Positions 38,121-43,053 of a stretch of 45,110 bases of DNA are shown in pieces (position 1 is the first letter of the stretch; every line of letters begins with the position of its first letter). The translations under genes were made by a program, and so were the position numbers. The stretch lies in sequence record SRR31156797_922. One strand, written 5' to 3'. A model generated the notes under the pieces. It was not told the origin of the DNA, made no database searches, and saw only the letters and a list, made by a program, of their open reading frames with translations.

Positions 38121-38625
38121 ATTAATCACTCCAAATCATTAAGTTGTATTATAAGTATAAACAGCAAAAGGAATTTCAACTAAGCAAATTGTTCTGTGTG
38201 TTTATTTTGATGATTCTTAATACTCTTAGTTAATATTTTGCAATAATTTCATACCCTGGTTGTAATTCTATTATTATCTTAACCAACCTATTAAAAATTA
38301 TATTTAGCTATCTATAGTGGAACGAAAAGTAATCGTAGCATGGTTGAATATGTTTGTCAATAGAACCTTTTCTGAGATTTTCTAGATTGTAAAACATGTG
38401 ATATTTGCTATACAAATAAGTCACTATGGCACTGCAGAATCGTTTTCTGTAGAGCTGATAACTGTCTGTTTTGCGTACATTTTTGTTTTGTTCTTTATAT
38501 TTTTTAGTTGTTGTATACAGTGATGTGATTTTATAAAAATTAAGGGTTTATTTGTAAAAATTATTTATGGATTATGATGGAATGACTTTATTAAGTATTT
38601 ATATGGTCGCTTCTTAACTAATGCG

Positions 38626-41600
38626 TTAAAGCAGTCCTAAGCTCTGTGCTTTTATAATAGCTTTTATCCTGCTGTCAACATTCAACTTATTCATTATGTG
38701 CCCAATATGGCTTTTTGTTGTGCTTAAAGAAATATTCAGTCTTTCACATATTTCTGCATTGGAGAGACCATCAGCTACTAGTTTTAGCAGTGCTAATTCT
38801 CTTTTTGTTAAAACAGATGTTACTTTCCTAGGTCCTAACAGCTTTTCAATACTTATATTTTTTATTGTCTTTTGCTTCATGATAAACGTAGGAAGCATAC
38901 TCTTAATAAAAGCAATATCGTTTTTATAAATTGGTTTTTCTTTCTTTTCAATGTATAAAAGTCCGATAAAAACTTTGTGGTATAGTATTGGAATACAGGT
39001 AATATTGAGATTTGGATTATCAATAATATGTGCATCGCTATCAAACAAATTGTTCTTCTTTGTTGAAATATAGTGTACTTCATTATTGGTTCTTCCTACA
39101 TATCTGATTATTTTATGAGCAATATTACTGATAAAATTTATATTACGCATTTCATCGTACTGTTTGTAATCTAAGTCCTTGTTAATTTGATGCTTTATTA
39201 ATAGTTCATCTGACTTTTCAAATATTATGCAGCAGAAATCACTTTGTGTTTTATTTACAATGATTTCTAATATTTTTTGAGCAGTTTCGTTCTCGTTGCA
39301 GCCTTGCAGAGCCTCAATAGCACCGTTGTATTGTTCTTTAACAGTATTTAGAATTATATTATCTTCTATAACTTGTACCTGCTGTTGATTAATATTGAAT
39401 TCTTTATTAATGCTCTGGACAATATACTCTGCTCCAAATAAATCAAAAGAAGATGAGGCATTTTCAGCGTAAAACATTTGTAAATCATAATTTTTATTTT
39501 GAAATCTTGCAGCTCTCAAATTAGCAAGAGCTTCGATTTTTATATTACCTTGCTTTTTTGCATAATGTATTACATTATTATATTCGCTGCACATGGATAC
39601 ATTGTTCTTTATATATATTTCATATTCGGTATTAACTAAAGCATAATAGCTGTAGAAGTTTTCGTAATTAATATTTGTCCAATATTTTAGTTCGTTTAGA
39701 TACTTCTTAATTGTTTTTATATTTCTTAATTTTTTACTATCAAGTAATTTATCATTCACAGATATTCTGATTAAGCTGCTGTAAAATATTATAAAAACCC
39801 TAAAGACCAATCCCTTGCTTTCCTTTAACTCATTAAAGGGTGCTTGTATCATCTTTTGGGCAAGACTATATCCCGTATCAATCTCATCAAACAAATACAG
39901 TTTCTCAAGCATTAATGCGTGTTCACTGATTTTTTCAAATTCTGTGAGCGATGGGTAATTACTATTGATTAAGTCAAAGTCTTTTGAATTTTCACCATAT
40001 TTTAAAGCGTGTACATAATTTGTGTATATTTGATAATTATAGAGGGTTGATTCCTGCTCAATATCCTTAAACATTGGTTTATTAGTATTAATATACAATG
40101 TTATTTTATCTAAAGATGAACCTATTAACAGTTTAGTATCCAGACTGGATATTATAGAATAATTAAGAAACAAAAAGTCTCCATTCAGCTTTCCGAAGTA
40201 GATTGATTTCTGTAAGATTTCATCTGCTGTTTTAAAAGATTTTGACCAATGAGCTAGAAAAGCACCGATAAGGAAATATACTACTGCTTTTGTAGAATGG
40301 TCATTAGTTTTTTCTGCTAACTGGAGAATGGTATCCTCTAAAAGTACAGATTTTTTATGATTATGCATTATCATAAATAAAATATAGTTATAAGAAATAT
40401 ACCCTAGTAAAGAGTTGCCGTCAGCAGAATTTTTTGAAGCTAATAATGCCGCAAATACACCAATAGGTCCTCTCAGATTATCTGATGTAAGTGTTGCGCA
40501 GGCATTCATAATAACAAGTACCTGCAGCAAAGATGATACTTCTTCTTTTTGCTTTAGTTTTCCATCTCGTAATTTTTGGATATAGTTTTTGCTGTATTTG
40601 ATATTGCATATCAGAAGCTCCAAAGGCAGGCATAGAGTTGACACTGGTGAGATGCCAAACGGACTAAATGTAATATCTGAAGCATTTATTATCTCCATCC
40701 CGACTTTCAACACATCTTTGTGTCTGCCATCGTTATGGAGCAAGTAAAGCTGCTTCATCTTTATTTTCTGCAATATTTCTTTGCTGTTTTTTTTGTTTAG
40801 AAGCATATTGATTGTTTTACCAGCTTCAGCCTTGTTATCTGTGTAGTATAAGCATTCAGCAAGCTCTAGATAAATATTTGTGTAGAGTATGCCTTCGATA
40901 CTTTCAGTGTATGGCAGAAGCTTGGTGCACAATGTGAACATTGCTAGTGCCGAATCCATTGATAATAATTGTTTTTCATTTATACCAGCATCAAAGAGAA
41001 TTTTCAGCCATTTTTCCGTATCATTATACAAAGCACGCTCTGATGACTTCAGAAGATGAGAGGCAATCAAAGTATTTTTATTATTAATATTAACTTCTGT
41101 AGAGTTTATTAATGAACAAGCAATATCAAAATGCGTTTGCTGCATTTCATTGCTGTCAAAGCTCTCTTCAATAATTTTAAAAATTATATCATGAGAAAAT
41201 AGAATTGTTTTCTTATCTGCATCATGCAATGATGTCATAATAATGGCAGTATTTGTTAGGCTGTCCAATCGTCTGTTCAATGTTTGTGTATCCATATTTG
41301 AGACTGCTTTTAAGGTGTCATAGTCAACTTTACCGGAAAAACATGCTATTAATCGTATTAGAATGGAATTGTTATCTAATTCTTTATTTATGTTTTTCTT
41401 TAATATATTCTCCACAGTATCATTGATATAATAATTACTGACTTCATTTACACTCATAGTCCATTTCTGATATGCATTGGAGTAGCAAATGATTCCATCA
41501 CGCAACATGATTTTTATTAATTCTTTGACATAGAACGGATTACCCATAGTCATGCCGTATATAAATCTAACAAAATATTCTTTATTAAAAAAGTTTCCAT

Positions 41601-42342
41601 AAAACATTTTATCAATAAATTGCTCTATGGATTGATAATGAAGAAAAGGTAAATCAATATATATGAATTCTTCTAATGAACTTAAAAAATTTTCTATTGT
41701 CGGAGAAGCGGAATTGTTTCTTACAGATATGATGAGCATTATATTGATCATATCTTTTTTCTTTATAAGTGCATTAATTATGTCAATTGTTGTTTTGTTC
41801 GCCCATTGAACATCATCTATATGCAGTACCATTGGATAAAGATATATAGATGTTTTTGTTATGAATTCTACTATTGTATTTTTAGTTTTATATACTAATT
41901 TTGAGTAATCTGGAGTATTATCTTTTGTATCTAAACCAAACAGGTTTTTCAATACAGGACTAAGCGTAGAAAGTAATGCAATATCATTTTTTAATTCTGA
42001 TTTCAAATCTCTAACAATATTATCCAAAATATCTTTAGGAAGAGTAAGTATATATTTTGTTATCTGATCTACTATATCAAATATATGATTAATGTAAAAT
42101 TCTTCTGACTGAATATTTTTTGTATATAGGTAAGTTGAGCCTTCCAAAGCTTTTACAGCATTATCCACCAAAAAAGATTTGCCGCATCCTGGCTGACCGA
42201 CTATTGTTACTATTCCCATAGAGCCCTGAAGCACCTTGTCATATGAATTATTAATTCTTGCTAATTCATTTTCTCTGCCTACAAAAATACTGTCAATATT
42301 TTTTATATTCTTTTTAGATTTTTCTATTTTCAGGCTATTCAT
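38626..42342 (-). CDS. Large STAND-type regulator: AAA ATPase - helical/TPR-like region - GAF-like domain - LuxR HTH
   Basis: FVGRE, Walker A GQPGCGKS, Walker B HIDDVQWA, GNPFY, FSHD; GAF-like IIRYV.RT...CIPI...GLLYIE; LuxR LTKRE..LLKLVADGLSNAEI. Start placed at ATG 42342 (GGAG RBS; candidate TTGTAT-18-TATAAT promoter upstream). Confidence 0.88.
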   Translation of the reverse strand: MNSLKIEKSKKNIKNIDSIFVGRENELARINNSYDKVLQGSMGIVTIVGQPGCGKSFLVDNAVKALEGSTYLYTKNIQSEEFYINHIFDIVDQITKYILTLPKDILDNIVRDLKSELKNDIALLSTLSPVLKNLFGLDTKDNTPDYSKLVYKTKNTIVEFITKTSIYLYPMVLHIDDVQWANKTTIDIINALIKKKDMINIMLIISVRNNSASPTIENFLSSLEEFIYIDLPFLHYQSIEQFIDKMFYGNFFNKEYFVRFIYGMTMGNPFYVKELIKIMLRDGIICYSNAYQKWTMSVNEVSNYYINDTVENILKKNINKELDNNSILIRLIACFSGKVDYDTLKAVSNMDTQTLNRRLDSLTNTAIIMTSLHDADKKTILFSHDIIFKIIEESFDSNEMQQTHFDIACSLINSTEVNINNKNTLIASHLLKSSERALYNDTEKWLKILFDAGINEKQLLSMDSALAMFTLCTKLLPYTESIEGILYTNIYLELAECLYYTDNKAEAGKTINMLLNKKNSKEILQKIKMKQLYLLHNDGRHKDVLKVGMEIINASDITFSPFGISPVSTLCLPLELLICNIKYSKNYIQKLRDGKLKQKEEVSSLLQVLVIMNACATLTSDNLRGPIGVFAALLASKNSADGNSLLGYISYNYILFMIMHNHKKSVLLEDTILQLAEKTNDHSTKAVVYFLIGAFLAHWSKSFKTADEILQKSIYFGKLNGDFLFLNYSIISSLDTKLLIGSSLDKITLYINTNKPMFKDIEQESTLYNYQIYTNYVHALKYGENSKDFDLINSNYPSLTEFEKISEHALMLEKLYLFDEIDTGYSLAQKMIQAPFNELKESKGLVFRVFIIFYSSLIRISVNDKLLDSKKLRNIKTIKKYLNELKYWTNINYENFYSYYALVNTEYEIYIKNNVSMCSEYNNVIHYAKKQGNIKIEALANLRAARFQNKNYDLQMFYAENASSSFDLFGAEYIVQSINKEFNINQQQVQVIEDNIILNTVKEQYNGAIEALQGCNENETAQKILEIIVNKTQSDFCCIIFEKSDELLIKHQINKDLDYKQYDEMRNINFISNIAHKIIRYVGRTNNEVHYISTKKNNLFDSDAHIIDNPNLNITCIPILYHKVFIGLLYIEKKEKPIYKNDIAFIKSMLPTFIMKQKTIKNISIEKLLGPRKVTSVLTKRELALLKLVADGLSNAEICERLNISLSTTKSHIGHIMNKLNVDSRIKAIIKAQSLGLL

Positions 42343-42422
42343 TCTCTTCTCCATAGGTATATACACATACTTTATAACATTATACAATGGTAAATAAAGA
42401 TAATACAACAGGATTTTTTAAT

Positions 42423-42440
42423 ATCATACCAAAGTATGAT
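42423..42440. promoter_or_regulatory. Palindromic candidate LuxR/NarL-type operator
   Basis: ATCATAC-caaa-GTATGAT perfect 7-4-7 inverted repeat in the divergent intergenic region. Confidence 0.6.
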
Positions 42441-42507
42441 GTATTTATGCTGAAAAATTGATACTTTATATATGTGATATTATATATATATTGGAGCATT
42501 GCTGAAT

Positions 42508-42762
42508 ATGAAAACAATAGGTGATATAAAAGCGTTCTCAAATAACCAAAATCATGATGGTTATATTATATGTGATGGCAGATCTTTGCCGATTGACAAG
42601 AATATAAAACTATATATGGTTATAGGTACCAGCTATGGGAACAAAGACGAGAAGTCATTTTGTATACCTGACTTGAGGGCAGATATCAGCAATCAAAAGA
42701 AATTTTATATTTGTATTGAGGGTAATTTACCTAATATTACAATAAATGAATATGGAGAGTAG
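42508..42762 (+). CDS. Small phage tail-collar domain protein (MdpB/microcystin-dependent protein-like)
   Basis: IGDIKAF...GYIICDGRSLPI....LYMVIGTSYG......FCIPDLR matches the recalled Collar consensus (GEI..F...GW..CDG..L.I....LF..IGT.YG.....F.LPDLR); ends in FYICIEGNLP. ATG 42508 preferred; the track start is TTG 42499. Confidence 0.82.
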   Translation: MKTIGDIKAFSNNQNHDGYIICDGRSLPIDKNIKLYMVIGTSYGNKDEKSFCIPDLRADISNQKKFYICIEGNLPNITINEYGE

Positions 42763-43012
42763 TGTCAGATAATAGACTGTATGCTTCATCCTTTAATAGT
42801 AAAGAATTGTTGACTGGATTGAATACAATTATATGATGTTGATTTGGAAATATCTATTGATATTTAAGCGTTTAGCTATGATGCAGCCTGATATAGAAAA
42901 TAAAATCAGCCTTGTAAAAGACTTTCTGAGATTCATTTATAATATTTTTATGGTAATGTTAATTATTCATACAGTATTAGATGCATTCCTTCTTGTTACT
43001 TATATAATTTGC

Positions 43013-43053
43013 TGCACTGTAGTAATGTGAAATTTATTGCGGTGCATTTCTTT
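43013..43053 (+). terminator. Terminator-like hairpin (plus strand)
   Basis: TGCACTGTAGTAA-N8-TTATTGCGGTGCA pairs fully only with G-U pairs on the plus strand; followed by TTTCTTT. Confidence 0.6.

Follow-up and report, generated by a model that had tools for sequence, protein, structure and literature searches.

The stretch of DNA analysed here comprises 45,110 nucleotides (nt) of sequence record SRR31156797_922 and is referred to, at its full length, as the window. The module examined is located at positions 38626..42762 and consists of two genes: on the minus strand (38626..42342) that of a regulator of 1238 amino acids (aa) starting from ATG 42342, delineated by means of the open reading frame (ORF) list, Pfam, alignment with its relative P0151, AlphaFold2 (AF2) and Foldseek, and on the plus strand (42508..42762) that of a collar-only mini-protein of 84 aa (Pfam Collar, E 8.7e-14, 51.7 bits against a cut-off of 24). 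The two coding sequences are separated by a divergent spacer of 165 nt (42343..42507) that presumably holds both promoters. A first-pass annotation of this DNA had described a regulator gene of >1200 aa lying head-to-head with a collar gene of ~84 aa, and both the ORFs and the Pfam scan bear this out. We suggest, with confidence that is evenly balanced, that these genes constitute a conserved two-gene module of low-GC Clostridia, in which a signal-gated STAND-LuxR regulator is associated with a collar-only protein as its local output or feedback partner.

The reading frame of the regulator is open as far as TTG 42408, the first TTG (38626..42408, minus strand), and would from there encode 1260 aa; the likely start is ATG 42342, with a GGAG motif 6 nt upstream of it. 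From the N-terminus onwards, and always on the minus strand, the protein is composed of an AAA_16 NTPase core (residues 20-203, 41734..42285; Pfam E 1.4e-15) with a Walker A motif that reads GQPGCGKS and a Walker B motif that ends in DD, a helical-repeat region of ~560 aa that is the presumed sensor (residues ~420-982, 39397..41085; all-helical in AF2 and supported by Foldseek), a GAF-like alpha/beta domain (residues ~1018-1140, 38923..39291; sub-cut-off Pfam match, P0151 alignment and AF2) and a LuxR/GerE helix-turn-helix (HTH) output domain (38647..38817; Pfam GerE E 9.6e-17, 60.8 bits against a cut-off of 23.5). In a family alignment of 16 sequences, which served both to define conserved columns and to build the structural model, residues G49, G52, G54, K55, D176, Q179, W180 and R208 are invariant, as are G267 and H384, while D177 of the Walker B motif, N268, P269 and D385 are nearly so; we take G267-N268-P269 and H384-D385 to be the GxP and MHD-like hallmarks of STAND proteins. 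The AF2 model of residues 1-1165 (predicted local distance difference test, pLDDT, 75.5; predicted template modelling score, pTM, 0.65) displays an alpha/beta NTPase, a helical arm (236-281), winged-helix beta-hairpins (285-382), uninterrupted helical repeats (420-982), a disordered linker (985-1016) and an alpha/beta domain (1018-1140). Its best Foldseek match in the PDB is the STAND-TPR protein 6mfv (E 2e-9 over 766 columns), and further matches include Avs3 (8dgc), Apaf-1, CED-4, NOD2 and MalT (8bob_C, target-normalised TM-score, TMt, 0.59). The regulator therefore possesses the hallmarks of a STAND NTPase, namely a P-loop with Walker A and B motifs, an arm, a winged helix and a C-terminal repeat sensor, and its Pfam scores for NB-ARC and NACHT are below the cut-offs of those families.

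The domain at residues 1018-1140 is probably a GAF domain. The GAF profile scores 16.9 bits (E 0.0096) against a cut-off of 22.4, P0151, for which a Pfam GAF domain has been precomputed, aligns end to end across the region, and part of the region is conserved in a regulator fragment from a second genome described below; this identity is probable and not proven because a PDB sequence search with the region returned nothing significant. Hence, the earlier description of the gene as STAND-GAF-LuxR holds for its STAND, helical and LuxR parts, an architecture well supported by Pfam, AF2 and Foldseek, whereas its GAF part falls under the Pfam cut-off.

A search of 5.8 billion clusters for relatives of the regulator retrieved 16 matches at E <= 1e-10. 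The closest full-length relative, P0151, is 23% identical and aligns through its residues 280-1539 with residues 22-1238 of the regulator (E 8e-68); it possesses an additional N-terminal protein kinase together with precomputed GAF and GerE domains, and it is the only one of the 16 with a LuxR HTH output. Plasmid-borne relatives, variously labelled as sensor histidine kinase, AAA family ATPase or EAL protein, are ~21% identical over the core of the regulator (residues 22-1132). Since P0151 aligns end to end and the plasmid relatives vary in their output, the regulator can be assigned, on sequence grounds, to a widespread AAA_16-helical-GAF family with swappable outputs. It resembles the Pkinase-AAA_16-GAF-output proteins of databases ('ATP-binding sensor histidine kinase', 'AAA family ATPase') in the end-to-end alignment of the core, but these frequently carry an N-terminal Ser/Thr kinase, whereas the regulator has none and has a LuxR HTH as its output. 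With MalT and other large ATP-binding regulators of the LuxR family (LAL) it shares its overall layout, with the STAND NTPase at the N-terminus, a helical sensor after it and the LuxR/GerE HTH at the C-terminus, although it differs from MalT in the additional GAF-like domain between sensor and HTH and in its sequence kin, which are kinase/AAA_16/GAF signalling proteins. It is not a MalT orthologue, as the NCBIfam MalT model (NF003420) matches the HTH only, with 40.6 bits against a cut-off of 537. Membership of an Avs or other PADLOC defence system was likewise rejected, since the PADLOC matches of the regulator are limited to the HTH level (CARF3, E 1.6e-6), its output domain is an HTH, and the collar protein has no PADLOC match.

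The reading frame of the mini-collar is open from position 42499, and ATG 42508 is considered its start because all 26 aligned relatives begin there; the ribosome-binding site (RBS), GGAG at 42493-42496, is separated from this ATG by a rather long spacing of 11 nt. The AF2 model of the protein (pLDDT 81.5) is most similar to T4 gp12 (5lye; query-normalised TM-score, TMq, 0.63, probability 1.00, root-mean-square deviation 2.3 over 70 columns), followed by the fibre of cyanophage A-1(L) (8kec_A) and the tip of T4 gp37 (2xgf_A), with weak Foldseek E-values (best, 7e-3), as is explained by the small size of the domain. The mini-protein is a complete collar-only unit and not a fragment of a gene, given that its core joins the C-terminal strand, that its family aligns without internal gaps and that no continuation of the collar is found in any frame downstream of its stop. 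The larger bacterial collar proteins of 170 aa, in which ~90 residues stand between these two elements (see below), agree in this with the split collar of T4 gp37, formed according to the available part of the report (PMC12724248) by residues 811-860 and 1016-1026 with the receptor-binding domain between them. T4 gp12, gp37 and the A-1(L) fibre have the same collar fold as the mini-protein; on the other hand, the phage proteins are long trimeric fibres whose collar flanks a receptor-binding domain, whereas the mini-collar stands alone in the cell.

An exhaustive HMMER search of 1.84 billion representatives with the window collar gave 3718 matches at E <= 1e-3, only two of them below 1e-30. The 150 matches listed are all longer proteins with 2-9 matched stretches at 28-44% identity, and those inspected are tandem arrays of ~85-aa units, each equal to the whole window protein (three units in P0005, nine in P0001), some of them preceded by a signal peptide. 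No homologue of near-equal length was retrieved with the window sequence alone. A two-sequence profile, made from the collar of the window and that of the second genome mentioned above (locus L076), retrieved 25 single-unit proteins of 76-114 aa, all with Pfam Collar and belonging to clusters called "phage tail protein" or "tail fiber protein". Six of these clusters are from Bacillota, either by their named source (P0169, P0176, P0182, P0184, P0188) or read as such, and the sources include Abyssisolibacter fermentans, Clostridium sp. 'deep sea', Pelotomaculum, Negativicutes and a Bacillota metagenome-assembled genome. By its sequence, the window protein is assigned to this Bacillota family of single-unit mini-collars (P0167-P0191 and L076) as a divergent member. 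The 27 proteins (window, L076 and the 25 database clusters) align without internal gaps, and inspection by eye found a signal peptide in none of them, so the link to surface structures that the first-pass annotation had envisaged is not supported. All 12 family-invariant columns are kept in the window collar, whose identity to the 26 others is 31-40% (mean 34%), compared with a mean of 61% among the others.

Phage tail-fibre collars are trimeric. Since this is so, and since relatives of the mini-collar carry three, six or nine units, the mini-collar is by analogy likely to be trimeric as well, while a homotrimer model with three copies scored 0.01 against a mark of 0.42 and weighs neither way; trimeric phage collars are also described in the accessible part of PMC12724248. 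The tandem collar-only units, which number three, six or nine in P0001, P0005, P0011 and a Paenibacillus protein, possibly make these proteins single-chain pseudo-trimers. Six mini-collars (P0170, P0171, P0173, P0178, P0180, P0183) were observed by eye to carry N-terminal extensions that end in K-G-G-x-x-Y before the conserved Met (alignment columns 1-17), which looks like a ribosome-binding site translated in frame as a result of a start called too early.

The pairing of the two families recurs in a second genome. Collar loci were obtained by scanning 185,579 species genomes with a small collar alignment, and the best 80 of 335 relatives (best identity, 45%), which do not include the window's own genome, were characterised by ORF calling and phmmer. 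Three or more tandem collar ORFs are present in 73 of these 80 loci, two in five and one in two, and the only single-unit mini-collar is that of L076, a locus of Clostridiaceae bacterium HSG29 that starts at a contig end, all other collar ORFs being at least 130 aa long. The L076 mini-collar (92-99 aa) is 36% identical to that of the window (E 2e-16). The ORF that precedes it on the same strand, at a distance of 84 nt, encodes a GAF-like tail and a GerE domain (E 1.3e-19); its product shares 41% identity with the C-terminal 158 residues of the window regulator (E 6e-36) and is by far the closest relative found. Divergence between the window and L076 is thus similar for both partners. Across the 80 loci, single-sequence regulator queries matched only L076, L034 (an HTH 7 kb away) and L032 (weakly), and family profiles matched the core (AAA_16-arm or GAF) in four loci (L071, L047, L069, L076), adjoining the collar gene only in L076; the remaining profile matches were generic kinase domains. 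The flanks of L076 consist of genes for a secreted 5'-nucleotidase with LysM, YibE/F and LysR, where the window has sugar genes instead. Because the two families adjoin in two diverged genomes with nothing else shared, the regulator and the mini-collar are probably a functional pair that work together. The linked two-gene module without phage context that had been proposed from the window is supported by this adjacency, synteny comparison having located the linkage in a second genome with a different orientation and different flanks.

With respect to the surroundings of the module, a Pfam scan of the 31 larger ORFs of the window assigned 29 to sugar phosphotransferase system (PTS), ATP-binding cassette (ABC) transporter, glycoside hydrolase (GH38, GH31, GH3 and GH42), sugar-modifying enzyme or regulator genes, the other two being an EamA-family transporter and a 65-aa ORF without family; the 25 further ORFs beyond the immediate neighbours comprise 23 of sugar type or regulators, the EamA gene and the familyless 65-aa ORF. 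No phage family was detected among the 31, and the first-pass statement that the pair sits among sugar operons without phage genes is thereby confirmed. On one side of the module are the genes of a histidine kinase and an AraC-type response regulator, on the other that of a LacI regulator, and a mannitol-dehydrogenase-like gene is a further neighbour (Pfam). The GC content of this region (38-43 kb), 0.28-0.33, is at the low end of the window's range. Rfam gave no match in the whole window.

Several side observations concern the borders of the module. The 65-aa ORF, which is hydrophobic and lies between the collar and LacI genes (42833-43030, plus strand), has neither a Pfam family nor a clear RBS and may be non-coding. 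A terminator-like hairpin identified by consensus scan (43013..43046, plus strand) overlaps the end of this ORF; transcription of the collar gene could stop there, whether the hairpin belongs to the module is uncertain, and the number of terminator-like sites found in the scan is not above shuffle expectation. On the other side, no terminator-like hairpin was seen after the regulator gene, and an AT-rich spacer of ~500 nt (38130-38625) separates the regulator stop from the response-regulator gene, with a good promoter-like site for the two-component operon at 38360-38332 (TTGACA, 17 nt, TACGAT with TG).

The divergent spacer contains the inverted repeat ATCATAC-N4-GTATGAT (42423..42440), which is a candidate operator only. 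The perfect palindrome noted in the first-pass annotation is indeed there, with arms of 7+7 nt, but its occurrence is no more than expected by chance: when the 165-nt spacer was shuffled 2000 times with its dinucleotides preserved, 39% of the shuffles contained a 7+7 repeat with arms <=10 nt apart, and 7.8% did so when at least two G/C per arm were required, and across the whole window such repeats number 0.30 per 165 nt. No second copy with <=2 mismatches exists in the window, nor does the motif occur in front of the L076 collar gene; the repeat may be an operator, although the sequence gives no reason for it. A (TA)n tract directly precedes the RBS of the window collar gene, and the L076 collar gene likewise has such a tract upstream, followed there by GGAGCAT. 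A scan for promoter-like sites gave 40, compared with 31.9 +/- 5.8 in shuffles, and thus no enrichment. The -35 hexamers upstream of both collar genes are, by reading, poor, which would fit dependence on an activator.

The regulator has the architecture of a cytoplasmic, signal-gated transcription factor and in this resembles MalT and the other large ATP-binding regulators of the LuxR family. In the most likely mechanism, a signal sensed via the helical region and/or the GAF-like domain would switch on the NTPase, the activated regulator would oligomerise, and its HTH would then activate the collar promoter in the adjoining spacer, autoregulation being probable. The collar protein, probably as a trimer, would be the local output of the module or its feedback partner. 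That the regulator acts as an activator is inferred by analogy with MalT, AfsR-afsS and RhiR-rhiABC, together with the poor -35 hexamers. Several points weigh against this model. The linkage comes from two genomes only; the L076 regulator is cut by the contig end, its NTPase half being unseen; and the genes are co-directional in L076 and divergent in the window, so that co-transcription fits as well as activation. Apart from the (TA)n tract and the RBS, no operator motif common to the upstream regions of the window and L076 was found, and the palindrome, being at chance level, lends the module no support. Placed among sugar operons, the regulator could serve those instead. Finally, the window collar is an outlier of its family that departs, by eye, at nine of 16 nearly invariant columns, which could reflect relaxed constraint.

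Among the other explanations, it is unlikely, though deserving of attention, that the collar protein is a protein ligand or anti-activator of the regulator, in the way that MalY, MalK and Aes act on MalT, and perhaps also its transcriptional target. MalT is an activator with protein antagonists, and its entry 8bob, whose title refers to negative regulation of the maltose system, is among the fold matches of the regulator, as is the Avs3-terminase structure 8dgc, STAND sensors being able to bind proteins. A ligand would also suit a small gene that accompanies a large regulator in two arrangements, the tandem one permitting co-transcription, and a protein that, having no signal peptide, shares the cytoplasm with the regulator; adjacency alone, however, fits a target and a ligand equally.

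It is distinctly improbable that the two genes are neighbours by chance, the regulator being a MalT-like sugar regulator of the surrounding operons and the small collar gene being unrelated to it. The position of the module amid a two-component pair, LacI, PTS, ABC and glycoside hydrolase operons, the presence of MalT among the structural matches and the chance-level palindrome could all be accommodated in this way, but the same two families adjoin in L076, where the flanks are not sugar genes, and the NCBIfam MalT model covers nothing beyond the HTH. Little confidence can be placed in a bolder version of the pairing, in which the collar-only protein would be either a direct gating partner of the STAND sensor, as a domesticated tail-fibre module, or an induced decoy that co-assembles with phage tail-fibre trimers; if true, it would represent a new class of STAND sensor-partner pair coupling a phage structural fold to transcription control in Clostridia.

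The chances are poor that only the regulator is functional and that the window collar gene is a decaying relic under relaxed selection. Its outlying position in the family, its departures at nearly invariant columns and its long RBS-ATG spacing would be compatible with decay, but the ORF is intact and of full length for the family, every invariant column is kept, the Pfam Collar score exceeds the cut-off by a wide margin, AF2 predicts a confident fold, and the regulator is similarly diverged from its L076 relative. Very improbable is an anti-phage module in which infection, once sensed by the STAND protein, leads to induction of a collar-only decoy that co-assembles with the trimeric tail fibres of the phage and poisons them, since the shared tail-fibre collar fold, the Avs-type structural matches and a GC content lower than that of most of the window are set against an output that is an HTH and not a killing effector, the HTH-level PADLOC matches, which equally leave the phage response suggested in the first-pass annotation unsupported, and the lack of defence or mobile genes near the pair in the window or L076.

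The mini-collar should also be distinguished from other collar proteins encoded outside phages. MdpB-like proteins (COG4675) are likewise products of non-phage chromosomal genes and show the same collar core and C-terminal strand pattern, but they differ in a His-rich insert of ~90 aa, in usually occurring as tandem triplets, in having recurrent neighbours of their own and in lacking an adjoining regulator homologue. In these bacterial proteins of 170 aa, the core is separated by the ~90 additional residues with His-rich motifs from a C-terminal strand that has the pattern seen in the mini-collar, as read from the tails that MAFFT left unaligned. The window protein was rejected as an MdpB-like protein of ~170 aa, for it has 84 aa and its core passes directly into the C-terminal strand.

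The tandem collar genes of the best 80 loci were seen in a recurrent neighbourhood. At least three genes of ~165-180 aa are present in the 73 loci mentioned above (for example L004, 9428-11054), and three ORF families recur within 5 kb of them: in 40 loci a ~139-aa protein that bears a twin-arginine-like signal, in 39 loci an acetyltransferase-like protein (~171 aa), and in 38 loci a secreted giant of ~1650 aa composed of repeats. The whole looks like a conserved six-gene cluster of soil bacteria. In Acaryochloris, the genes AM1_3686-3690 encode an acetyltransferase, a conserved hypothetical protein and three 'phage tail collar' proteins and are differentially expressed, according to the part of the source available (PMC11633204); as far as that part goes, they look like the same type of cluster. 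A different arrangement was observed in Paenibacillus cellulosilyticus (NZ_CP054613.1, L081 7872-11042), where a signal peptide and three collar units are followed by Ig/cadherin-like repeats and three S-layer homology (SLH) domains, an architecture which places the collar unit at the tip of a surface-anchored protein.

Regarding the origin of the mini-collar, tblastn with P0176 matched 155 phage and 45 plasmid records at E <= 1e-5, and 80 plasmid records at E <= 1e-3, none of them reaching 60% identity, and the four plasmid matches inspected (Paenibacillus, C. felsineum and Rhizobium) are all in proteins of at least 158 aa. With the window collar itself, eight phage records were matched, none covering 80% of the query. 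Hence, no close phage or plasmid source was found in these two sets, and no small collar-only protein was seen by tblastn in the GenBank phage set; it is plausible that the mini-collar was "domesticated" from a phage. The nearest ESM Atlas clusters were observed to be Collar-only proteins of 78-80 aa, two of the top three being mostly viral (Uroviricota) where the phylum is known, and collar-only proteins may thus be phage-encoded too. The match on the p337 megaplasmid of Clostridium felsineum was rejected as another copy of the module, since a small HTH gene lies ~600 nt upstream and no LuxR/STAND gene is present. This match belongs to a 227-aa 'tail fiber protein' (L083 5962-6645), whose gene is directly upstream of that of a 1251-aa FN3-associated protein and close to those of beta-helix repeat proteins, with no phage genes listed around it.

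The nearest precedent for a regulator-collar pair is RhiR-rhiABC of Rhizobium leguminosarum, in which RhiR activates rhiABC. According to the accessible part of the literature on this system, RhiB carries a tail-collar domain and the rhiABC operon is flanked by rhiI and rhiR, so that, as in the window, a LuxR-family regulator gene stands beside a non-phage collar-domain gene (PMC13133039). At the pRlvC locus, genes for an N-acyl homoserine lactone (AHL) synthase, a hypothetical protein, a 158-aa 'phage tail protein' and a LuxR regulator are found together, and the tblastn match of P0176 to RhiB is restricted to query residues 18-56 (38% identity, E 1e-3). RhiR, however, is a small AHL-type LuxR protein and not a STAND protein, and RhiB, with ~158 aa, is not collar-only and comes from a different phylum. 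In Streptomyces, the best-known direct target of the STAND-type regulator AfsR is a tiny adjoining gene, afsS. The gene order, regulator then small gene, is like that of L076, although AfsR differs from the window regulator in its N-terminal DNA-binding domain of the Streptomyces antibiotic regulatory protein (SARP) type, and AfsS is not a collar protein.

No description of a STAND-GAF-LuxR regulator paired with a collar protein was found in the literature covered, most subscription journals being outside the search. A full-text search joining the tail collar domain and LuxR led only to the Rhizobium work, the literature on PF07484 contained nothing on Bacillota mini-collars as judged by titles, abstract openings and some passages, and among the publications listed for STAND/AAA_16/GAF/LuxR no such architecture with a collar gene appears in the titles and abstract openings. 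The parts of the module thus belong to known families, whereas the way in which they are combined is a new variation, as is a collar-only family seen as regulated genes of the cell.

Non-phage collar-domain genes are common in bacterial genomes, where they are routinely mislabelled "phage tail protein", and to our knowledge none of them has a known function. The collar-only version of ~80 aa is the smallest form of this fold and an easy object for structural and binding studies, and its conserved neighbouring regulator provides an experimental switch for finding when the collar protein is made. For genome annotation, a lone "tail protein" gene beside a LuxR gene need not mean a prophage remnant. 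As for the biology of STAND proteins, the regulator adds a kinase-less, DNA-binding member to a large unstudied AAA_16-helical-GAF family with interchangeable outputs.

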